Below are positions 3,186 to 40,086 of a stretch of DNA of 53,949 bases, piece by piece. The DNA comes from an uncultured Gammaproteobacteria bacterium (GTDB taxonomy: Bacteria; Patescibacteriota; Patescibacteriia; UBA9934; GWF2-40-263). The notes under the pieces were generated by a model. The model saw only the letters and a list, made by a program, of their open reading frames with translations, made no database searches and had not been told where the DNA came from. Where the stretch lies: contig CAYHDY010000001.1 in assembly GCA_964355525.1 (NCBI GenBank), positions 1 to 53,949 of the forward strand. Direction: 5' to 3'. The position numbers and the translations under genes were made by a program. Every line of letters begins with the position of its first letter. The stretch's first letter is position 1.

Positions 3186-4745
3186 TTACCGTGCGTACTC
3201 AATAACACGTGTCTCTCGAATGATGGTGACTTTGATTTCACCTGGATAGCTGAGTTCAGATTCAATTTTATTCGCGATGTCTTTTGCAAGTTGGTATGAA
3301 GCGAGATCTGTAATTTTTTCTGGATGAATGAAGACACGCACTTCACGTCCGGCTTGAATCGCGTAGACTTTTTCCACGCCTTCAAATCCGCTCGCAGTGC
3401 GTTCCAATTCTTCCATGCGCTGAATAAAGTTTTCAAGGGATTGCTTGCGCGCTCCCGGCCGCGCACCACTGATCGCATCCGCCGCTTTCACAATCGAACC
3501 TTCGACGGTGCGTGGACGATCCTCATGATGGGCGATGGATTGATAACAAATTTCTTCCGGGAATCCGAATTTCTTCATGATGTTGTAGCCGATTTCTGGA
3601 TGTGCACCCTGCATATCGTGATCAACCGCTTTTCCAATGTCATGAAAGAGTCCTCCTTTTTTACAGACAAACACATCCGCACCGAGTTCTTCTGCCATCA
3701 TTCCCGCAAGGGTTCCAACTTCGATGGAGTGTTGCAAAGCGTTTTGTCCGTAACTGGTACGGAACTTCATGCGGCCTAAAATCGAAACGAGCTTCGGATC
3801 GATGGAAGAAACAGGAATTCCGAGTTGATACAACGCATCTTCTCCGGTCTTCTTAAGTTCTTGTGCGAGAGATTTCTTTGCCTCGGTAACAGATTCTTCG
3901 ATGCGGGCCGGATGAATGCGTCCGTCTTTGATGAGCGCATCAAGTGCGCGTTTCGCAACCTGGCGACGAATAGGGGAGAAACCGCTGATGGTAATAATCG
4001 ACGGTGTGTCATCCACAATGATTTCTGTTCCCGTCAAAAGTTCAATGGCTTTAATGTTACGTCCTTCTTTTCCGATGATGCGTCCTTTCATTTCATCGTT
4101 TGGAAGTTCAACAGCGGTTGTGGTTGTGTCGACGGACACGGACGAAGAGAATCGCGTGATCGCAAGGGAAAGTAATTTGCGTGATTTGATTTCCACTTCT
4201 TCTTCGGTGATCTCATCCATCTTACGCATGCGACTCATGAGCGCTTCTGAAGAATCCACTTCGATTTGTTTCATCAACTTTTCTTCCGCCTGTTCTTTTG
4301 TTAATTGAGCGACGGCTTGCAGTTTCAATTGTTGTTCGTGCTTCAATGTCTCGATGTTCGTTTTAACATCTTCGACTTGTTTCAATTGTTCTTCGAGACG
4401 TGTTTTCTTATCTTCAATCTCGATCAGTTTTTGATCGAACATCGTTTCACGTTTCTCTAATCGTTTCTGTTGTTCTTGGATGTCACGACGTTGAACTTGT
4501 TCTTCCTGCTTTGCGTCTTCAATGACTTTGAACGCTTTTTCTTTTGCCTCGATTAACAATTCTTGTTGCTTGCTTTTTGCCTCGTTCAGCATCTCTTGTT
4601 GTTTGGTTTTGGTCTCCGTCAGAATTTTTTCCGCCTTGTTCTCTGCGTCATCGGCCATGCGGGAGGCTTGTGCTTTTCTGTACACATACCCACCAACCGC
4701 ACCACCTCCGAGCCCGAGAACGAGCAGAAGGATCGAAATAAACAT
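3186..4745 (-). CDS. rny: Ribonuclease Y
   Basis: N-terminal TM helix, long coiled coil, KH region (GRIIGKEGRNIKAIE) and HD domain (LFHDIGKAVDH, HHEDRP). Size 519 aa. Confidence 0.9.
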   Translation of the reverse strand: MFISILLLVLGLGGGAVGGYVYRKAQASRMADDAENKAEKILTETKTKQQEMLNEAKSKQQELLIEAKEKAFKVIEDAKQEEQVQRRDIQEQQKRLEKRETMFDQKLIEIEDKKTRLEEQLKQVEDVKTNIETLKHEQQLKLQAVAQLTKEQAEEKLMKQIEVDSSEALMSRMRKMDEITEEEVEIKSRKLLSLAITRFSSSVSVDTTTTAVELPNDEMKGRIIGKEGRNIKAIELLTGTEIIVDDTPSIITISGFSPIRRQVAKRALDALIKDGRIHPARIEESVTEAKKSLAQELKKTGEDALYQLGIPVSSIDPKLVSILGRMKFRTSYGQNALQHSIEVGTLAGMMAEELGADVFVCKKGGLFHDIGKAVDHDMQGAHPEIGYNIMKKFGFPEEICYQSIAHHEDRPRTVEGSIVKAADAISGARPGARKQSLENFIQRMEELERTASGFEGVEKVYAIQAGREVRVFIHPEKITDLASYQLAKDIANKIESELSYPGEIKVTIIRETRVIEYAR

Positions 4746-12261: not shown

Positions 12262-15200
12262 ATGAGTTACAATCATCAAGAAATTGAAAAGAAATGGCAG
12301 GCTCGATGGGAAGCCGACCAACACGGGCGTGTCGTCGAAACTGATTCGAACGAAAATGCCTTGTATTACCTCATCATGTTTCCGTATCCGTCCGGATCCG
12401 GTCTGCATGTAGGCCACGTGGAATCGCAAGCCGCGATTGATATTTTGGCACGCATGGAGCGTATGCGCGGAAAAAATGTGTTGTGTCCGATCGGATACGA
12501 TGCGTTTGGTTTGCCTGCGGAGAATTACGCGATTAAGACGGGTGTGCATCCTTCGGTCACAACGAAACAAGCGATTGAGAATTTTCACAAACAGATGCAA
12601 TCCCTCGGCCTCTCGTTCGATTGGTCACGCGAAATTTCTACGGCGGATCCGGAATACTACAAATGGACACAATGGTTGTTTCTCTTGTTTTATAAAAACG
12701 GTTTGGCATACAGAAAAAAATCTCCCGTGAACTGGTGTGACGGTTGTCATACCGTTCTCGCAAACGAACAAGTCGTCGCCGGCGCCTGCGAACGTTGCGG
12801 CACCATTGTGATCCAAAAAGATTTGGAACAATGGTTTTTCAATATCACAAAATACGCGGATCGTTTACTCGCAGGTCTCGACACAATCGATTGGCCGGAG
12901 AAGATTAAGTCGATGCAGCGGAATTGGATTGGCAAATCGGTTGGAGCGGAAGTCATCTTTCAACTCGCTGATGCGTCATCCCGAGCGAAGTCCGACGAAG
13001 TCGAGGGATCTTCGATTCGCATGGAAGTTGTATTCGCATCGAACAATAAAGCGAAGAAGGCGCGTATGCAGAAATTGGTTGATGCCGCTGGACTCTCGAT
13101 TCAACTGAAGACGCCCGAGGAAATCGGTATTCTTGATTTCGATGTTGTAGAGGATGGTTTGACACTCACGGAGAATTCGGAAAAGAAAGCGCGAGCGCTT
13201 TCGCATCTCACGTCACTGCCGATTCTTGCAGATGATTCCGGATTTTTTATTGAGAACAGTAAATTGGATCCGGTGAAGGTAAAACGAAATGCTCTCGACG
13301 GCGTTGACGAAAAAGAATTTTCAACGGAAGAGATCGGAAACAAGATGCTCACATATTATCAACGCATCGCCACAGATCATGGCGGTCGTGTGGATGCGGA
13401 ATGGCGAAGTTCTTTGTGTTTGATGTCGTCCGCGAAGATATTGAAACAAGAAGAAGCAATCAGACCGACGATTCTGACGAACGAACCGCACGGCATCATG
13501 GATCCGTTTATGCCGCTTCGTCCATTGTATATTTCGAAAGATACAAATAAATACGTTCTCGATCAGACGGATGAAGAAGAATTGATCGAGTTAAAACCGA
13601 TCATGGACGCACTCACACGTTTGTTCCGTCCATCGATTCGTGTTTTTACGACGCGCCCCGACACACTCTTCGGTGCAACGTATCTTGTTCTCGCACCTGA
13701 ACATCAACTTGTTGATTCAATCGTGACCGTTGAACATCGCGCAGAAGTCGAGGTGTATCGCGTCGCTGCGTCGAAGAAATCCGCGCTTGAGCGAACGGAA
13801 TTGCAGAAAGAAAAGACCGGTGTGTTTACGGGTGCGTATGCAATCAATCCTGTGAACGGTGAAGCGATTCCTGTTTGGATCGCAGATTATGTCATCACGA
13901 CATACGGAACCGGAGCGATCATGGCCGTCCCAGCACACGATGAACGAGATTTTGAATTCGCAAAAAAATATCAGTTGCCGACGAAGATTGTTGTCGCATC
14001 AAAAAGTGGGGAAGAGATCGAAGGTTTTTTTGAAGAGGGAGTCGCTGTCCATTCCGAATTTCTTAGTGGACTTTCGACAAGCGGAGCAAAACAAAAAATG
14101 ATTCAGTGGCTCGAGGAGAATCATGTCGGAAATGCGAAGACGACATTTCGTTTGCGCGATTGGCTCGTTTCACGACAACGTTACTGGGGAGCGCCGATTC
14201 CAATTATTTGGTGTGAGGAACATGGGGCACAGGCCGTCGAAGAATCACAACTTCCTGTCGAACTTCCGACCGATGTCGACTTCAAACCGACCGGCGAATC
14301 GCCACTTGTCGATTCAAAAACATTTCACGATGTGAAATGTCCGAAGTGTGGCAAAGATGCGCGTCGCGAGTCTGACACGATGGATACGTTCGTCGACTCG
14401 TCGTGGTACTACTTGCGCTATACAGATCCGCACAACGCGAAGGCGTTCGCGGATAAATCGAAAATCGATTATTGGTGTCCGGTGGATTTGTATCTCGGCG
14501 GCGCGGAACACGCGGTCATGCATTTGTTGTACGCACGCTTTTTCGCATACGCACTTCACGATCTCGGCTATCTGAATTTCTCCGCCAGAGGCGGATCCGC
14601 CTCTGGCGGAGAAGAGCCATTCTTAAAATTGAAAAATCAGGGACTCATCCTCGGACCCGACGGAGACAAGATGTCGAAGTCAAAAGGGAACGTCGTGAAT
14701 CCGGATGAAATCGTTTCCGAGTACGGGGCGGATTCGATTCGTCTCTATGAAATGTTCATGGGGCCGCTTGAAGATGCAAAACCATGGGACACAAAAGGAG
14801 TCGTCGGCGTTCGTCGTTTTCTCGATAAGGTTTGGAAATTGAAAGAAAAAGTCGCCGCCTCTGCGTCATCCCGAGCGCAGCGAAGCGAAGCCGAGGGATC
14901 TTCGAGCGAGGGGGAGATCCTTCGGGTACCTCAGGATGACGCATATGTGAACCGTCTCCTTCACAAAACCATCAAGAAAGTCACGAAGGATCTTGAAGAT
15001 CTGAAATTCAACACGGCGATCTCACAACTCATGATCGCGACGAATGAATTTTCGAGTGTGACATCGATCGAAGAGCAATCACTCGAATCATTGTTGAAAT
15101 TGCTCGCACCGTTCGCGCCGCACATTGCGGAAGAACTCTGGGGACAACTTGGACACACAACATCGATCTTCAAAGAATCATGGCCGACGTTTGATCCGAC

Positions 15201-15402
15201 ACTCATTGTCGACGACGTCATTGAAATGGGTGTGCAAGTGAATGGAAAAGTTCGCGCGACGATTCACATCGCACCGAATGCGGATGAAGCGTCGGCAAAA
15301 GAACTCGCGTTGTCTGAACCGAATGTTTTGAAATGGATTGAAGGAAAAGACATTGTAAAAATTATTTACGTTCCGGGGAAAATTTTTAACATTGTTGTAT
15401 GA
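12262..15402 (+). CDS. leuS: Leucine--tRNA ligase carrying an in-frame Ham1/RdgB-like insertion and three palindromic-element insertions
   Basis: HIGH (GLHVGHVES), Zn module CDGC...CERCG, QRNWIGKS, CP1 editing motifs TTRPDTLFGATY and GTGAIMAVPAHDERD, and KMSKS. At 1046 aa it is much longer than typical bacterial LeuRS. Confidence 0.9.
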   Translation: MSYNHQEIEKKWQARWEADQHGRVVETDSNENALYYLIMFPYPSGSGLHVGHVESQAAIDILARMERMRGKNVLCPIGYDAFGLPAENYAIKTGVHPSVTTKQAIENFHKQMQSLGLSFDWSREISTADPEYYKWTQWLFLLFYKNGLAYRKKSPVNWCDGCHTVLANEQVVAGACERCGTIVIQKDLEQWFFNITKYADRLLAGLDTIDWPEKIKSMQRNWIGKSVGAEVIFQLADASSRAKSDEVEGSSIRMEVVFASNNKAKKARMQKLVDAAGLSIQLKTPEEIGILDFDVVEDGLTLTENSEKKARALSHLTSLPILADDSGFFIENSKLDPVKVKRNALDGVDEKEFSTEEIGNKMLTYYQRIATDHGGRVDAEWRSSLCLMSSAKILKQEEAIRPTILTNEPHGIMDPFMPLRPLYISKDTNKYVLDQTDEEELIELKPIMDALTRLFRPSIRVFTTRPDTLFGATYLVLAPEHQLVDSIVTVEHRAEVEVYRVAASKKSALERTELQKEKTGVFTGAYAINPVNGEAIPVWIADYVITTYGTGAIMAVPAHDERDFEFAKKYQLPTKIVVASKSGEEIEGFFEEGVAVHSEFLSGLSTSGAKQKMIQWLEENHVGNAKTTFRLRDWLVSRQRYWGAPIPIIWCEEHGAQAVEESQLPVELPTDVDFKPTGESPLVDSKTFHDVKCPKCGKDARRESDTMDTFVDSSWYYLRYTDPHNAKAFADKSKIDYWCPVDLYLGGAEHAVMHLLYARFFAYALHDLGYLNFSARGGSASGGEEPFLKLKNQGLILGPDGDKMSKSKGNVVNPDEIVSEYGADSIRLYEMFMGPLEDAKPWDTKGVVGVRRFLDKVWKLKEKVAASASSRAQRSEAEGSSSEGEILRVPQDDAYVNRLLHKTIKKVTKDLEDLKFNTAISQLMIATNEFSSVTSIEEQSLESLLKLLAPFAPHIAEELWGQLGHTTSIFKESWPTFDPTLIVDDVIEMGVQVNGKVRATIHIAPNADEASAKELALSEPNVLKWIEGKDIVKIIYVPGKIFNIVV
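12972..13014. repeat. Palindromic element family A, left-half copy inside leuS (translated as ASSRAKSDEVEGSS)
   Basis: tgcgtcatcccgagcgaag...gagggatcttcg matches the left ends of the copies at 14862 and 28016. Confidence 0.6.
14581..14610. repeat. Palindromic element family B: 30-nt perfect palindrome tccgccagaggcggatccgcctctggcgga inside leuS
   Basis: Perfect self-complementarity. Identical copy at 39646-39675. Exactly 10 codons (SARGGSASGG). Confidence 0.9.
14862..14943. repeat. Palindromic element family A, full copy inside leuS
   Basis: Termini tgcgtcatcccgag / ctcaggatgacgca are inverted repeats (one mismatch). Internal gagggatcttcg / gagatccttcg arms. Translated as SASSRAQRSEAEGSSSEGEILRVPQDDA. 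Confidence 0.8.
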
Positions 15403-16724
15403 ACATCGTGATCATCGGCACGGGATACGTGGGACTGACATCGGGGATTGGATATGCGAAATTGGGGAATCGTGTCGCGTGTGTTGATATCGATGCGGAA
15501 AAAATTGCAAAGCTTGATTTGGGTCAGGTGCCGTTTTTCGAAGCTGGGATGACGGAAGCGCTGCATCAAGAACAAGAAATGGGTTCGATCGTTTTTACGA
15601 CGGATCTCTCATCTGTCCTCGGTGAAGCGGAGGTGATCTTGCTCGCGGTTGGAACGCCGTCGAATTCAAGCGGGGAAGCGAATCTTTCTTTTTTATTTCA
15701 AGCAGCAAAACAAATCGGACAACATCTTGATCACGAAGTTGTGATTGTTACGAAAAGTACGGTGCCGGTCGGAACGAATCGTCGTGTCCTTGCTGCGATT
15801 CAAGAATCGATGGTCGTATCGGGGCGATCGGATCTCACGAGTTTGATTCAGATCGCAAGCGTGCCGGAATTTTTGCGAGAGGGAAGCGCGTTGAGAGATT
15901 TCATGGAACCGGAACGGATCGTGGTTGGAGCGGAAGATGAAATTGTTTTTGCGGTTGTCGAAGCAATGCATCACGGGATTAAAACAACGTGGGTGAAAAC
16001 ATCAATCGAGACAGCCGAGCTCACAAAGTACGCGGCGAACGCGATGCTTGCGACAAAGATTTCGTTCATCAATGAGATTGCAAACATCGCGGATCGCACG
16101 GGTGCGAATGTGCGCGACATTGCGTACGCGATCGGGCTCGACTCGCGGATCGGTCCGCATTTTTTGCAGGCAGGCATCGGATACGGAGGATCGTGTTTTC
16201 CGAAAGACGTTTCTGCATTGCATCAAATCGCCGGCACAAACGGATATGATTTCAAATTATTGACCGCAGTGATCGAAGTGAATAATCGTCAGCGCGATGT
16301 GTTTATCAAAAAAATTCAGGATGTACTCGGCACGTTGAAGGGGCGACGGATTGCTGTGTGGGGACTTGCGTTTAAAGCGGGAACGGATGATGTCAGAGAG
16401 TCTGCATCGATCGATATTGTTCGCCGATTGTACGCACTTGGTGCCGACATTTGTGCATTTGATCCGAAGGCGGAAGTTTCTGCGAAACGTCTATTGCCGG
16501 ACGCTCTTTCATTCGCGTCGACCGCGATCGATGCAGCGGATGGGGCGGAAGCCCTTGTTGTACTCACAGAGTGGCCGGAGTTTCGCGACGTTTCGTTTTC
16601 AACTGTGAAAGCACGCATGCTCGATCCGATTATTTTTGACGGACGCAATCATCTCGCAGATTTATCACTCGCGAAATTTGGATTTCAGTATCACGGCATC
16701 GGTGTATGTTCTTCCGATCGATAA
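15399..16724 (+). CDS. ugd: UDP-glucose 6-dehydrogenase
   Basis: GTGYVGL Rossmann motif and catalytic GGSCFPKD. Size 441 aa. ATGA overlap with leuS. Confidence 0.9.
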   Translation: MNIVIIGTGYVGLTSGIGYAKLGNRVACVDIDAEKIAKLDLGQVPFFEAGMTEALHQEQEMGSIVFTTDLSSVLGEAEVILLAVGTPSNSSGEANLSFLFQAAKQIGQHLDHEVVIVTKSTVPVGTNRRVLAAIQESMVVSGRSDLTSLIQIASVPEFLREGSALRDFMEPERIVVGAEDEIVFAVVEAMHHGIKTTWVKTSIETAELTKYAANAMLATKISFINEIANIADRTGANVRDIAYAIGLDSRIGPHFLQAGIGYGGSCFPKDVSALHQIAGTNGYDFKLLTAVIEVNNRQRDVFIKKIQDVLGTLKGRRIAVWGLAFKAGTDDVRESASIDIVRRLYALGADICAFDPKAEVSAKRLLPDALSFASTAIDAADGAEALVVLTEWPEFRDVSFSTVKARMLDPIIFDGRNHLADLSLAKFGFQYHGIGVCSSDR

Positions 16725-18196
16725 TGGTATCGCCGTCAAAAACATTCGCCGCCCTCGCGGCGATGTTTTGTTTTGGTATTCTCCTCGGTCCATTGTTCAT
16801 TTCTGTTCCGACGAATGTGTACCTCGTTCTTCTGATCGTTTGCGTTTTAATCGTTTCGTTCTCCCCTCCTTCACAAGGAGGGGTAGATGGTGGTCGCGCA
16901 AAGTGGTTCGGTCTTTTTATCCTGATGTTCATCTTCGGATTATTTCGTTACGCACAAAGCGAGATCCCAAAAAATATTCCGACCGTGCGAGAACGCACCG
17001 GTTCGATGCTTCGCATTGAAGGAGATGTGATTGCCGAACCAGCCATCAGTTCGAAATCGCAACAAGTCACGATTGGTCATGTACGTGTTGTCGATGAGTC
17101 TCTTTTTGGAAACGTTCTCGTTTCCATTTCGAAAGATCAATCGATCGTGTACGGGGATCACCTCACGTTCGCGTGCTCGATGCAGATTCCTCGACCGTTC
17201 AGCGGATTTGCTTACGATCGATTTCTTCAAGCGAAAGGTGTCTTTGCTCTTTGTCGATTTCCGCACAATCTTGATCGTGTTGCGTCGAAACAGTTCTCAA
17301 TCGCCGGATCGATTCTTTCTTTCAAACATCAAATCATCACAAAAATGAAACAGATTTTTCCCGAACCGCACGCGTCGTTTCTCTTCGGTCTCGTGTTCGG
17401 CGGAAACATCGGACTCGATAAAGATATTCAAAATGATTTTGCGAAGACAGGAACATCGCACATTCTTGCCGCATCCGGTTTCAATGTTTCGTTGTTTACG
17501 TTCGTCTTCTTCGGCTGGGTGATTCAATATCTCGGTCGAAAGCGCGGAGCGATCGCGACACTCATTCTTCTCGGTGCATATGTGATCATGGCTGGTGCGA
17601 CGGCGGCTGTCGTTCGAGCTGCTGTGTTTGGAGTCGTACTGCTTACTGGTTCTGTGATCGGTCGGCGTGCACATGTTTTGAATGCATTATTGTTCACAGC
17701 ATCGCTCATGTTGTTTTACAATCCGCGTTGGCTTCTTGATGATGTTGGGTTTCAACTTTCTTTCGTTGCCTTCGCGGCAATCATGTTTGTCGCACCGCGA
17801 ATCGAAGAGCGACTCGAATTTATTCCTGATCGATTCGGAATCCGCGATGCACTCGCCGGTTCTCTCTCGGCGATTCTCCTCACGCTTCCGATCATGCTCT
17901 GGCAATTCGGTTCCGTCTCGCTCACCGCCCCGTTTGCAAACGTTTTCGTTTTGCCGCTCCTTCCGTTTCTGATGTTGTATACGATCGCGATTCTTCCGAT
18001 CGCATGGATCTCAACGATCGTCGGAACATACATTGCCCTTCCGTCACTCATCGGATCTAGATACGTTCTTACGATCATTGGGATTTTCGCGTCACCGACA
18101 TTCGCCTACGTTCCCGTTCCGTTTGCGCATGCCGCCGCGATCATCTCAGCGATCGCAATCATCATCGGATGCGTTGTCTTTTTTCGACGGTCGTGA
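16724..18196 (+). CDS. comEC: ComEC/Rec2-family competence channel protein (no metallo-beta-lactamase domain)
   Basis: Polytopic membrane protein. Competence-domain segment FAKTGTSHILAASGFNVS. TAATG overlap with ugd. Element at 16861-16896 lies in an early loop. Confidence 0.75.
   Translation: MVSPSKTFAALAAMFCFGILLGPLFISVPTNVYLVLLIVCVLIVSFSPPSQGGVDGGRAKWFGLFILMFIFGLFRYAQSEIPKNIPTVRERTGSMLRIEGDVIAEPAISSKSQQVTIGHVRVVDESLFGNVLVSISKDQSIVYGDHLTFACSMQIPRPFSGFAYDRFLQAKGVFALCRFPHNLDRVASKQFSIAGSILSFKHQIITKMKQIFPEPHASFLFGLVFGGNIGLDKDIQNDFAKTGTSHILAASGFNVSLFTFVFFGWVIQYLGRKRGAIATLILLGAYVIMAGATAAVVRAAVFGVVLLTGSVIGRRAHVLNALLFTASLMLFYNPRWLLDDVGFQLSFVAFAAIMFVAPRIEERLEFIPDRFGIRDALAGSLSAILLTLPIMLWQFGSVSLTAPFANVFVLPLLPFLMLYTIAILPIAWISTIVGTYIALPSLIGSRYVLTIIGIFASPTFAYVPVPFAHAAAIISAIAIIIGCVVFFRRS
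16861..16896. repeat. Palindromic element family C' inside comEC (translated as SPPSQGGVDGGR)
   Basis: ctcccctcctt-caca-aggagggg...ggtggtcg. Sibling at 18733-18769 with the same ggtggtcg tail. Confidence 0.7.
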
Positions 18197-26712: not shown

Positions 26713-28011
26713 ATGGATGTATTCAAGATCACGGGAGGGAAACCTCTTCGCGGAGAAATTGCTGTGTCTGGTGCAAAGAATGCTGCATCAAAAATGATGA
26801 TTGCAAGTTTGCTCACGGCAGATCCGGTTATTCTTAAAAATGTTCCTCGACAACAAGAGACCGCCATCACGGAAGAAATCATTACCGATGTCGGCGCAAA
26901 GCCCATCTGGTTGGATGAACATACGCTCTCGACGCAAACGTCCGAAATTATTTCCACGAACGTTTCTTCTCTCACCAGAAAAAATCGCATCAGCATTCTT
27001 GCACTCGCGCCGATGTTGCATCGCCGGGGTGAAGCATTCGTTCCCCGTGTCGGCGGAGATTTGATCGGACCGCGTCCGACGAATTTTCATATTGATGCGC
27101 TTCGAAAAATGGGAGCGTTGATCGAAGAAACGAATGAAGGCTATCGCGCGACCGTGAAGAATCGATTGAAAGGTGCATTGATCGAATTACCATATCCATC
27201 TGTCGGTGCAACAGAGACAGCGATTCTTGCAGGTGTTCTTGCAGATGGTCGGACAACGATTCGCAATGCGGCCGGCGAGCCGGAAGTGAAAGCGCTCATC
27301 ATGATGTTGCAAAACATGGGGGCGATCATTCAAGTTAATTCCGGAAGATCGATTGAAATTTTCGGCGTGGAAAAATTGCATGGCACAACCGCAACGGTGA
27401 TGCCAGATCGCATCGAAGCGGCATCATATGGATCGATGGCGATCGGAACGCGTGGGGAAATTTTTGTGCGCGGCGCGCAACATCAACAGATGATGACGTT
27501 CCTGAACGCGGTGCGTCGCATCGGTGGAGAATACGAAGTACGCGAAGACGGAATTTTGTTTCGAGGAACTCGTCCGCTTAAAGGTATTGAACTTGAAACG
27601 GAACCGCATCCTGGATTTATGACAGACTGGCAACAACCATTCGTTGTCGTGTTGACTCAAGCCGAGGGAACATCCGTTGTACACGAAACAGTTTACGAAG
27701 AACGATTCGGGTATACGGAGGCGTTGAAAAAAATGGGTGCGGACATTACCTTGTTTTCGAACTGTCTTGGTGAAACGGAATGTCGATTCAAAGGTCAAAA
27801 TTATAAACACTCCGCCGTCATCAACGGTCCGAAACAATTGCACGCGGCGGATGTGGAAGTTCCGGACATTCGCGCCGGTCTCGCATTCGTTGTTGCCGCG
27901 CTTGTTGCGGATGGTGTTTCGACATTGTCCGGAATCGAACATCTTGATCGCGGATACGAAAATTTGGAAGCGAAGTTAAAAGGAGTCGGTGCGGATATTA
28001 AACGCGAATAA
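26713..28011 (+). CDS. murA: UDP-N-acetylglucosamine 1-carboxyvinyltransferase
   Basis: ITGGKPLRGEIAVSGAKNAA, RPTNFHIDALRKMGA and DIRAGLAFVVAAL. Size 432 aa. Confidence 0.9.
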   Translation: MDVFKITGGKPLRGEIAVSGAKNAASKMMIASLLTADPVILKNVPRQQETAITEEIITDVGAKPIWLDEHTLSTQTSEIISTNVSSLTRKNRISILALAPMLHRRGEAFVPRVGGDLIGPRPTNFHIDALRKMGALIEETNEGYRATVKNRLKGALIELPYPSVGATETAILAGVLADGRTTIRNAAGEPEVKALIMMLQNMGAIIQVNSGRSIEIFGVEKLHGTTATVMPDRIEAASYGSMAIGTRGEIFVRGAQHQQMMTFLNAVRRIGGEYEVREDGILFRGTRPLKGIELETEPHPGFMTDWQQPFVVVLTQAEGTSVVHETVYEERFGYTEALKKMGADITLFSNCLGETECRFKGQNYKHSAVINGPKQLHAADVEVPDIRAGLAFVVAALVADGVSTLSGIEHLDRGYENLEAKLKGVGADIKRE

Positions 28012-28015
28012 AAAT

Positions 28016-28121
28016 TGCGTCATCCTGAACGAAGGTTGGTGATCTGTCACAACCGAAGCTGAAGGATCTCTGTGCGAATTCGATTCGCCCGAAGATCCTT
28101 CGGCAAGCTCAGGATGACGCA
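28016..28121. repeat. Palindromic element family A, full-length intergenic copy (106 nt)
   Basis: Termini tgcgtcatcctgaacgaagg / ...caagctcaggatgacgca. Internal gaaggatct / agatccttc arms. Confidence 0.8.
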
Positions 28122-39033: not shown

Positions 39034-40086
39034 ATGAAAAAAGATTTGATTCCAAAAAAAGTTTTAGCAGCATTTGGTTTATCTTCACCACGATCTGTAA
39101 TCATGATTGCATCCGGTTTGATTCACCAAACGTATTGTGTTGATTCGGGCAAAGATAAGTATATCATCCAGCGATTACATCCCGTCCTTGCAAGCGAGGA
39201 AATCGCGGAGGATTTTCTTGCGGTGACAAAATTTTTACACGAACAAAAATTTTTAGCGCCACAGTGCGTTCTGTCAAAAAATGGGAGCGTGTTGGTGCAT
39301 ATTAATGATTTTTCTTGGCGTGCGCAAACATTTATCGCGGGGAAAACGGTTCATCGATTGAAAAATGTGGCGATGGCAAAAGAAGCAGGAATGATTTATG
39401 CGCAATTTCATAAAACGCTTGCAGTGATTCCATATCAATTCAAATCAAAAAAAGTTTTGCACGATACGGAAAAAATTTTTGACACATTTCGAAAAACAGT
39501 TGATTCATACCGTGATTCTGAATTAATGACGGAGGTTCATTCGGAAGTTGAATTTCTTTTAAAACAGACGCCAAAGTATTTTTTACCAAAGTCACTGCCT
39601 CTCCGTGTGATTCACGGTGATCCGAAAATATCGAACATTCTTTTTTCCGCCAGAGGCGGATCCGCCTCTGGCGGAGATCGAAATGGAAAAGCGAAAGCGA
39701 TTGTTGATCTCGATACATGCAATCGACGTCCACTTCTTGTTGAACTCGGCGATGCATTTCGGTCGTGGTGTGGAGGTGTTGAGGACGATTCAAAAAATAC
39801 ATTTTCGATTCCATTATTTCGTGCTGCATGGAAAGGGTATGAATCGATTGCGAAATCATTGATAACAAAAAAAGAAAAACAACAGGTTCCGAAAAGTATC
39901 GGAACGATTACGCTTGAACTCGCATGTCGATTTATGACAGATTATTTTGCGGATACATATTTCGGTTGGGATTCAACAAGATATTCATCGCGTCGTTTGC
40001 AGAATCTTGCGCGTGTACGAGGACAGATTGCGGAGTTCAAAGATTATCAAAAAAAACAGAAGGAGATCCAAAAGATTGTTTCTTGA
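39034..40086 (+). CDS. Phosphotransferase (APH/choline-kinase family) protein carrying the family B palindrome
   Basis: Catalytic loop VIHGDPKISNILF and metal loop AIVDLDT. Confidence 0.65.
   Translation: MKKDLIPKKVLAAFGLSSPRSVIMIASGLIHQTYCVDSGKDKYIIQRLHPVLASEEIAEDFLAVTKFLHEQKFLAPQCVLSKNGSVLVHINDFSWRAQTFIAGKTVHRLKNVAMAKEAGMIYAQFHKTLAVIPYQFKSKKVLHDTEKIFDTFRKTVDSYRDSELMTEVHSEVEFLLKQTPKYFLPKSLPLRVIHGDPKISNILFSARGGSASGGDRNGKAKAIVDLDTCNRRPLLVELGDAFRSWCGGVEDDSKNTFSIPLFRAAWKGYESIAKSLITKKEKQQVPKSIGTITLELACRFMTDYFADTYFGWDSTRYSSRRLQNLARVRGQIAEFKDYQKKQKEIQKIVS
39646..39675. repeat. Palindromic element family B: identical 30-nt perfect palindrome inside the kinase gene
   Basis: tccgccagaggcggatccgcctctggcgga, 30/30 identical to 14581-14610. 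Same reading frame (SARGGSASGG). Confidence 0.9.

Follow-up and report, generated by a model that had tools for sequence, protein, structure and literature searches.

We analysed a 53,949-nucleotide (nt) stretch of forward-strand DNA, contig CAYHDY010000001.1 of assembly GCA_964355525.1 (hereafter the window). Its leuS gene encodes a bacterial-type leucyl-tRNA synthetase (LeuRS) with a second enzyme fold nested in it. A full-length ITPase-fold domain of the Ham1 superfamily is inserted in frame at the tip of the first β-hairpin of CP1. The clade to which the domain belongs is tied to LeuRS in two ways, being either nested in LeuRS, mostly at the CP1 entry hairpin, or encoded immediately upstream of leuS. 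As the Mg2+/triphosphate residues are kept while the FGYDP and SHR recognition motifs are replaced, the domain is probably an active pyrophosphohydrolase of altered specificity.

The Ham1/ITPase-fold domain and its host synthetase

The features of the gene that define the nesting are the following.

12262..15402, + strand: leuS open reading frame (ORF), bacterial-type LeuRS with the nested domain; uninterrupted, 1046 amino acids (aa)
12406..12417, + strand: HVGH (HIGH) signature, residues 49-52; H49 and G51 invariant in an alignment of 68 LeuRS sequences
12949..12969, + strand: outgoing strand of the first CP1 β-hairpin (EVIFQLA, residues 230-236); predicted strand E225-235
13021..13629, + strand: nested Ham1/ITPase-fold domain, residues 254-456, assigned by Pfam PF01725, model, conservation and hhalign
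13630..13665, + strand: return strand of the hairpin and CP1 threonine-rich editing motif (PSIRVF-TTRPDT, residues 457-468)
13633..14115, + strand: CP1 editing domain (Pfam tRNA-synt_1_2, residues 458-618), 197 bits, including VPAHDERD
14668..14682, + strand: KMSKS signature, residues 803-807; K803, M804, S805 and K806 invariant in the 68-sequence alignment

The spacing between RNWIG and TTRPDT is 243 residues here versus 24-46 in 69 insert-less relatives. Hence, the extra segment comprises approximately residues 237-456 (nt 12970-13629, about 220 codons) at the tip of the hairpin. An earlier sequence-only reading had described a Ham1/RdgB-like module nested in frame at 12967-13635, and the measured limits agree with it. 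EVIFQLA contains the final native LeuRS residues before the insert, with identity to the nearest insert-less LeuRS of 0.9-1.0 up to that point, and identity to the insert-less clade is back at 1.00 from residue 461. The left junction lies between SSIR and MEVV and the right one between LFRPS and IRVF; they are spanned by the peptides FQLADASSR and LFRPSIRVFTTR, respectively.

The segment alone matches Pfam PF01725 (Ham1p_like) with an E-value of 6.8e-12 and 46.1 bits over profile positions 1-125 of 186, and within the whole LeuRS protein the match scores 42.2 bits (cut-off 22.5 in both cases). The AlphaFold (AF2) model of the insert, built from a 25-sequence family alignment, has a predicted local distance difference test (pLDDT) score of 94 and a predicted template modelling score (pTM) of 0.86. 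Foldseek aligns this model with the Ham1/RdgB/ITPA crystal structures 3TQU, 6WWD, 1K7K, 4BNQ and 2Q16 at a probability of 1.00 and template modelling (TM) scores of 0.68-0.77. The alignments have 204-214 columns against targets of 190-207 aa, that is, they are full length. The hidden Markov model (HMM) search with residues 254-456 and the structure predictions of insert and full-length enzyme thus bear out the nested module, which has the Pfam score, the full-length α/β fold and the N-terminal triphosphate/Mg2+ residues of the Ham1/ITPase family. The insert is far under the cut-offs of all NCBIfam RdgB equivalog models (36.9 versus 145.35 bits for TIGR00042, 45.6 versus 234 bits for NF011397). 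It is a Ham1 superfamily member of a distinct, uncharacterised clade outside the RdgB/ITPA equivalog group.

We then inspected the active site by profile comparison. Many unnamed metagenomic proteins, each ~200 aa long (alignment A4, P0179-P0269), initially served as canonical Ham1, but are themselves another divergent Ham1-like group, and E. coli RdgB was used instead. Of the RdgB query sequence, residues 2-75 and the stretch with S and H of SHR were corroborated; FGYDPI and the R of SHR are presumably correct. In the hhalign alignment of the insert family with RdgB (probability 97.8%), N262, K265, E297, K309 and D324/D325 pair with RdgB N10, K13, E41, K53 and D68/D69, which we take to be the triphosphate/Mg2+-binding and catalytic residues. 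Invariant in the 25-sequence alignment are N262, K265, E297, N305, K309, D325, V340-L345, R401, D414 and P418 (N10, K13, E45, N53, K57, D73, V88-L93, R149, D162 and P166 in insert numbering), and K341-R342-N343 are among the conserved domain residues over 25-50 family members. The Mg2+/triphosphate/catalytic positions are at least 95% conserved over 50 members; in several of these, G or T replaces the first Asp of ADD.

The N-terminal motifs (S/T)xNxxK, E-x-G, ENAxxKA and ADDSG are common to the insert and the Ham1 family, and HMMER alignments to RdgB/Ham1 structures cover only the first ~80 residues, ending at ADDSG. The profile alignment agrees with the sequence-only reading that the C-terminal half is diverged and SHR lost; FGYDP is lost, too. 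Specifically, MPLRPLY lies opposite FGYDPIF, and L-K-P is placed opposite SHR by manual extension, the alignment itself stopping at RdgB residue 177. In place of these nucleobase/ribose-recognition motifs the clade has conserved replacements, and its own conserved motifs are DPVxVKRNAL, GGxVDAEW, (Y/F/M)PLRxLY and ELxP (L-x-P at the SHR position). Judged from the sequences, the phosphate/Mg2+ half of the domain is kept and the base-specificity half is remodelled. The A4 group has the same non-canonical C-terminal half, with the consensus motifs QPGxxVRR, EMLEYY and LQIDPxxGKY, and falls under all NCBIfam RdgB cut-offs.

The host resembles known bacterial LeuRS, whose known insertions are the CP1 editing domain, ZN1 and the leucine-specific domain (2BTE, 4AQ7, 7NU8), and is ordinary in having all signature motifs. 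Its product scores 1037.9 bits on TIGR00396 leuS_bact (cut-off 548.4) and contains the tRNA-synt_1, LeuRS editing and anticodon-binding domains of Pfam. HVGH, KMSKS, all four zinc cysteines (residues 159/162/176/179), TTRPDT (residues 463-468; T463, T464, R465, D467 and T468 invariant across the 68 LeuRS) and VPAHDERD (H559 and D563 invariant) were found, in invariant columns, so the motifs that had been called intact are intact. The full-length AlphaFold model (pLDDT 88.7) superposes on the T. thermophilus, E. coli and N. gonorrhoeae enzymes with target-normalised TM scores of 0.80-0.87. In the best explanation, the gene gives one polypeptide, a functional LeuRS of bacterial type from a Patescibacteria (Uhrbacteria-like) bacterium. 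A role of the insert in making up for a degenerate editing site was rejected, as LeuRS that have the insert and LeuRS that lack it show the same invariant CP1 motifs.

Separate production of the domain was rejected. The insert does begin with its own Met, as had been pointed out, and GAGGGA stands 12 nt upstream of this internal ATG, within a palindromic element described below; the Met is not meaningful as a start, because no stop codon follows the domain. An intein or otherwise spliced insert was rejected as well, since the segment has no Hint or intein Pfam match, lacks nucleophiles at its junctions and folds as Ham1. Its GC fraction (0.44-0.47) is not anomalous against 0.45-0.53 for the rest of the gene, and the family HMM found no second Ham1-like gene among the six-frame ORFs of the window.

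The locus is authentic. An independent SPAdes contig in ENA (L004, 5351 bp), assembled from a different sample, matches the window over its entire length at 99.70% identity and contains the same ORF and the same downstream gene. The two differ by 16 single-nucleotide polymorphisms (SNPs) in 5351 nt, none of them in the insert. Two fall in leuS, and one of these, in the element at 14862-14943, is apparently the sole non-synonymous one. This contig, together with the many homologous architectures, rules out an assembly chimera.

The genes neighbouring leuS in the window encode a hypothetical protein, a thioredoxin reductase, a UDP-glucose dehydrogenase, whose start overlaps the leuS stop (ATGA, 15399-15402), and the competence-channel protein ComEC (16706-18196, 1.3 kb downstream of leuS).

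Distribution of the clade within and beside LeuRS

When the other best-scoring LeuRS (119 sequences, a set enriched for insert-bearers since the query contained the insert) were compared, 43 proved to have a homologous ~205-aa domain at this hairpin, and in these 43 the gap from RNWIG to TTRPDT is 227-252 residues. Scanning one genome per GTDB species for the clade motif gave 21 loci, 16 of them embedded in bacterial LeuRS at the same hairpin. The 16 carry Kaiserbacteria, Paceibacterota, Dojkabacteria and Saccharibacteria labels, except for two labelled Gammaproteobacteria, which may be mislabelled. Three close metagenome loci from JGI/ENA are all embedded at this hairpin, too. All or nearly all carriers of embedded copies are Patescibacteria. 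A search of 1.84 billion cluster representatives returned 36 at E <= 1e-30 and 430 at E <= 1e-10. About half of the best representatives are 1000-1350 aa long with the match at ~240-260, and about half are free proteins of ~205-215 aa; some entries are auto-named 'non-canonical purine NTP pyrophosphatase' (P0081, P0094). The sequence-only reading knew of no described aminoacyl-tRNA synthetase with such a domain and left the question of lineage specificity to a comparison with LeuRS relatives. The architecture is not a one-off, as dozens of Patescibacteria LeuRS in public databases carry a domain of the same clade at the same hairpin.

The CP1 entry hairpin (site 1) hosts other guests as well among the LeuRS closest to the window enzyme. 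These are an ASCH domain (P0010, residues 247-350; further carriers are P0014, P0018, P0019 and P0023), an α/β Ser-hydrolase (P0123, residues 254-417) or a bare palindromic element (P0012, P0024). P0015, P0114 and P0124 have palindromic peptides at the same loop, a call based only on loop length and peptide. Within CP1, NUDIX or Ser-hydrolase domains occupy a second site (LeuRS relatives with guests there are P0035, P0063 and P0215, the last of which also has a HAD domain). The Ham1-like clade itself is found at two other LeuRS positions, which makes three in all. Outside LeuRS, a DNA topoisomerase I (TopA, P0148) contains a Ham1-like domain of the clade along with a NUDIX domain and an intein, and an alanyl-tRNA synthetase (AlaRS, P0209) contains a more distant Ham1-like domain along with a guanylate kinase and a Ser-hydrolase.

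All guest domains are small hydrolases or kinases, mostly of nucleotide/phosphate-ester families, which favours an autonomous house-cleaning or salvage role with the essential protein as scaffold. Patescibacteria seem generally to nest small enzymes of nucleotide metabolism in essential proteins. In the tree, LeuRS with an ASCH domain branch among insert-less ones, which implies that gain and loss at the hairpin are frequent. One metagenomic leuS (L032, 4001-4601) has a frameshift within its Ham1-like insert, which splits the match into 4001-4519 and 4491-4601; either an error of sequencing or decay of the insert could account for this.

Six close relatives that stand free (40-60% identity) have a readable gene context, and five of these are followed immediately by leuS. 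Specifically, P0002 (Pacearchaeota), P0001 and L010 (both Nanoarchaeota) precede an archaeal-type leuS by tens of nt (~20-60), and the gene downstream of P0002 scores 984 bits on NF008957. P0003 and P0136 are upstream of a bacterial leuS that has a Ser-hydrolase match ahead of its editing domain. The sixth, P0144, is not near leuS, and a more distant branch (30-35% identity) has no leuS linkage. The two archaeal LeuRS beside free-standing copies are 44% identical to each other. Loci of DPANN archaea with a free-standing protein ~60% identical to the bacterial insert are L002 (6001-9373), L008 (964-1996) and L010 (5001-8313). The distribution suggests inter-domain transfer of the Ham1-like gene with its leuS linkage kept. 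As the free-standing form is upstream of leuS even with an archaeal-type LeuRS, the pattern is a classic 'Rosetta stone plus synteny' indication that the two are functionally linked.

Another free-standing copy, P0134, stands at the end of a gene string of LexA, DinB (IMS) and Peptidase_S66 (LdcA/MccF family). MccF-type enzymes detoxify aminoacyl-adenylate mimics, and this may or may not be relevant to P0134.

Palindromic elements and the history of the insert

Three palindromic sequences are translated within leuS.

12972..13015, + strand: left half of a palindromic element, in an in-frame disordered linker (ASSRAKSDEVEGSSI); 84% identical to 14862-14905
14578..14613, + strand: second, unrelated 36-nt perfect palindrome, in frame (SARGGSASGGEE, residues ~773-784)
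14862..14943, + strand: full 82-nt copy of the palindromic element, in frame, C-terminal LeuRS residues ~867-894

The element family (family A) is defined by the terminal inverted repeat TGCGTCATCC(C/T)GAG...CTCAGGATGACGCA, with copies at 12972 (half), 14862 and 28016; the termini of the 14862-14943 copy are TGCGTCATCCCGAG...CTCAGGATGACGCA. The half copy of 44 nt directly abuts the 5' side of the insert, as had been claimed, and stops at the hairpin apex of the full element. A 16-mer of it occurs four times in the window versus 0.04 expected. Both copies in leuS are translated into segments of predicted disorder: residues 241-250 have pLDDT values below 50, and residue blocks 871-880 and 881-890 have mean values of 52 and 49. 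The copy at 28016-28121 is a relative of 106 nt that begins ~5 nt past the stop of an EPSP-synthase/MurA-like ORF (26713-28011). The unrelated 36-nt palindrome (TTCTCCGCCAGAGGCGGATCCGCCTCTGGCGGAGAA) gives leuS the peptide SARGGSASGGE just ahead of the KMSKS region and has a near-identical copy at 39642-39677, inside an APH-like ORF (39034-40086).

Rickettsia palindromic elements (RPEs) are short palindromic repeats inserted in frame in protein-coding genes. Like RPEs, the elements in the window are translated in frame, at disordered surface segments, so the flanking element, though not the Ham1 insert, belongs with RPE-like repeats. Unlike RPEs, they are of another sequence family and from another phylum, and one copy breaks off precisely at the nested-domain boundary.

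The insert itself is well constrained. It is 55-60% identical to the inserts of LeuRS whose cores are 51-58% identical to the core of the window enzyme, indicating that it is at least as constrained as the synthetase. A neighbour-joining (NJ) distance tree built on LeuRS cores places the window enzyme deep within a large insert-less Uhrbacteria-like clade, as sister to P0009 and P0013 (86% core identity), and all other Ham1-bearing LeuRS fall outside this clade. Most parsimoniously, the window lineage gained its insert secondarily, from an insert-bearing leuS outside the sampled set. At the right junction, PSIRVF-TTRPDT resembles PSIKVF of embedded copies and not the C-termini of free genes.

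Both flanks are native, being 0.9-1.0 identical to the insert-less clade up to the junctions, and no gene-conversion tract from an insert-bearing leuS was seen. The sister enzyme P0012 has a full related element in the same loop, in the same orientation and frame, and P0024 has an element-like peptide there. We infer a route in which the left, illegitimate end would have formed at the palindrome apex and the right, anchored end in the highly conserved DNA coding for TTRPDT; this looks like homology-facilitated illegitimate recombination. The sequence-only reading had proposed that the element mediated the capture. As a general origin this does not stand, since no such element is found at the junctions of the other insert-bearing LeuRS examined; what survives is narrower, namely that the palindrome was at most the left breakpoint of the secondary acquisition in this lineage. 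The right half of the palindrome is absent from the 3' junction.

Two points count against the gain scenario. It is drawn from a distance tree at a hairpin that is a hotspot of gain and loss, and no donor closer than ~60% identity was found. P0004 was considered as a close donor (77% identity over 36% of the query) and rejected, as P0004 shares 75% identity with P0066 in the same 81 residues, which are conserved. The ComEC gene downstream of leuS is compatible with DNA uptake, but proves nothing.

Function of the nested domain and its known parallels

We infer catalytic activity for the domain from its retained residues. The independently folding ~205-aa domain at the hairpin tip, having kept the ITPase triphosphate/Mg2+ machinery while replacing FGYDP and SHR, would act as a pyrophosphohydrolase that cleaves something other than inosine or xanthosine triphosphate (ITP/XTP). 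Tethered to LeuRS, it would be made in a fixed 1:1 ratio with the synthetase and would work as a separate catalytic module that leaves the aminoacylation and editing chemistry unchanged. Autonomy of the module is consistent with the presence of the clade at other LeuRS sites, in TopA and, more distantly, in AlaRS, and with editing residues that are invariant with or without the insert. Taken as a whole, a tethered nucleotide pyrophosphohydrolase of non-ITP specificity is the reading we favour, and we regard it as moderately probable.

Three considerations pull the other way. The C-terminal pocket is remodelled to such an extent that even catalysis is extrapolated. A Ham1 fold may also serve as a nucleotide sensor, for which KomB of the Kongming system, where the fold is recruited to a partner protein, is a precedent (PMC13454610); the insert matches KomB (9XVC, 8ZSG) at Foldseek TM scores of 0.65-0.73. 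Finally, the synteny with leuS in both bacteria and archaea exceeds co-expression convenience, and the substrate could be a product of LeuRS.

The last consideration leads to the main alternative, a serious one although we hold it to be rather unlikely: a LeuRS-dedicated module acting in the reaction cycle of the synthetase, on mis-activated or leaked aminoacyl-adenylates, on diadenosine tetraphosphate (Ap4A) by-products formed from Leu-AMP and ATP, or on adenylate-mimic inhibitors. Such a module would be a new proofreading or protection domain, fused in Patescibacteria and a separate subunit in DPANN archaea. The free-standing relatives upstream of leuS, archaeal-type in two DPANN genomes, argue for it, as do the three nesting positions within LeuRS and the genomes in which a Ser-hydrolase fills site 1 and the Ham1-like gene stands upstream instead. 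Replaced base recognition with a kept phosphoanhydride-cleaving half is what another AMP-X substrate would lead one to expect. NUDIX domains, a family that includes Ap4A hydrolases, are often in the same LeuRS. However, the clade member nested in DNA topoisomerase I, and the more distant one in AlaRS, speak against a chemistry specific to leucine; neither P0144 nor the branch at 30-35% identity is near leuS; and many close LeuRS lack the domain with their CP1 editing motifs equally intact. We also know of no Ham1-family enzyme that acts on acyl-adenylates. A related and still more tentative proposal is that the clade is an unrecognised partner of LeuRS acting on a LeuRS-linked nucleotide (mis-activated aminoacyl-adenylate, Ap4A-type by-products or adenylate-mimic toxins), and that ultra-small bacteria and archaea have it in common, fused in Patescibacteria and as an operon partner in DPANN.

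We consider it improbable that the domain lacks catalysis and serves as a nucleotide sensor or structural appendage, whose ligand binding, for instance of a damaged or signalling purine nucleotide, would modulate the CP1 hinge movement or LeuRS oligomerisation. Its place at the hairpin that leads into the mobile CP1 domain and its remodelled specificity motifs would fit this role. Canonical Ham1/ITPA proteins are homodimers. KomB is the deoxyinosine triphosphate (dITP) sensor of Kongming defence (PMC13454610) and a structural match, but its sequence identity to the insert is only 14-16%, so the likeness is at the level of the fold. A pure binder would not need the Mg2+/triphosphate/catalytic residues that are invariant in the 25-sequence alignment. 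Moreover, the position varies among three LeuRS sites and free-standing forms exist. The window neighbours include no effector partner such as the SIR2 protein KomC, no KomA deaminase and no defence operon.

A neutral or selfish passenger, that is, a gene fragment that palindrome-associated recombination had placed in a permissive loop and that is tolerated there, had been offered in the sequence-only reading as a selfish gene-in-gene and is more improbable still. Site 1 does accept ASCH domains, Ser-hydrolases and bare palindromic elements, the window leuS has three in-frame repeat insertions, and the L032 homologue is frameshifted within the insert. Yet the rate at which the insert evolves does not exceed that of the LeuRS core, and the insert retains a coherent set of active-site residues and a confident fold. 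Its free-standing form is syntenic with leuS, and Pfam detects no mobility-gene or intein features in it. Finally, a chimeric contig or a gene-calling error that joined leuS to a Ham1 gene would suit a low-coverage metagenomic source (the contig name of L004 gives cov 2.2), but is effectively refuted by the SNP-bearing independent assembly, by the same architecture in dozens of further assemblies (ENA, JGI, NCBI, Logan) and by a continuous reading frame whose full-length model folds at pTM 0.76.

Among known systems, RdgB/Ham1/ITPA proteins (PF01725; 1K7K, 2Q16, 3TQU, 4BNQ, 2J4E) share the full-length fold and the N-terminal motifs with the insert; unlike them, the insert is not detectable by HMMER beyond ADDSG and scores 5-fold under the equivalog cut-offs. 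RdgB/ITPA is a stand-alone housekeeping gene, whereas the insert clade lies inside another enzyme or in synteny with leuS. In the enzyme family of LeuRS, one domain is normally nested in another. Even CP1 counts as an obligate inserted domain (PMC13114784). None of the solved LeuRS (chains of at most 876 aa), however, has a catalytic domain of another family inside the CP1 entry hairpin.

Other aminoacyl-tRNA synthetases (aaRS) likewise serve as scaffolds for an extra domain. Examples are NF040702, 'isoleucine-tRNA ligase, N-acetyltransferase domain-containing', and, in a reduced-genome organism, the MetRS of Mycoplasma penetrans with its ancillary domains (PMC13215547). Different from these, the domain in the window is internal, recurs at one loop, alternates there with ASCH and Ser-hydrolase domains and has a syntenic free form. 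The extra domains of NF040702 and of the M. penetrans MetRS are, to our knowledge, terminal appendages. The searchable full-text literature gave no description of an ITPase-fold domain in the CP1 hairpin of an aaRS, in agreement with what had been supposed from the sequence, and the text of AARS Online (PMC11580382) mentions neither Ham1 nor Patescibacteria. The architecture is a variant of the known theme of nested and appended aaRS domains, present in sequence databases but with no describing paper found.

The aaRS are among the best-studied enzymes, yet no paper was found on a domain of the nucleotide house-cleaning ITPase family in the CP1 hairpin of LeuRS, an arrangement that is common in Patescibacteria. 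The hairpin and the second CP1 site are landing pads for small hydrolase domains (Ham1-like, ASCH, Ser-hydrolase, NUDIX and HAD), and they provide a natural system for studying domain insertion and turnover. The nested domain could reveal how nucleotide-scavenging organisms protect translation, or a new aaRS quality-control activity. Were the clade indeed a LeuRS partner, its members would form a new class of modules for aaRS quality control or protection, one that the two domains of life would have exchanged.

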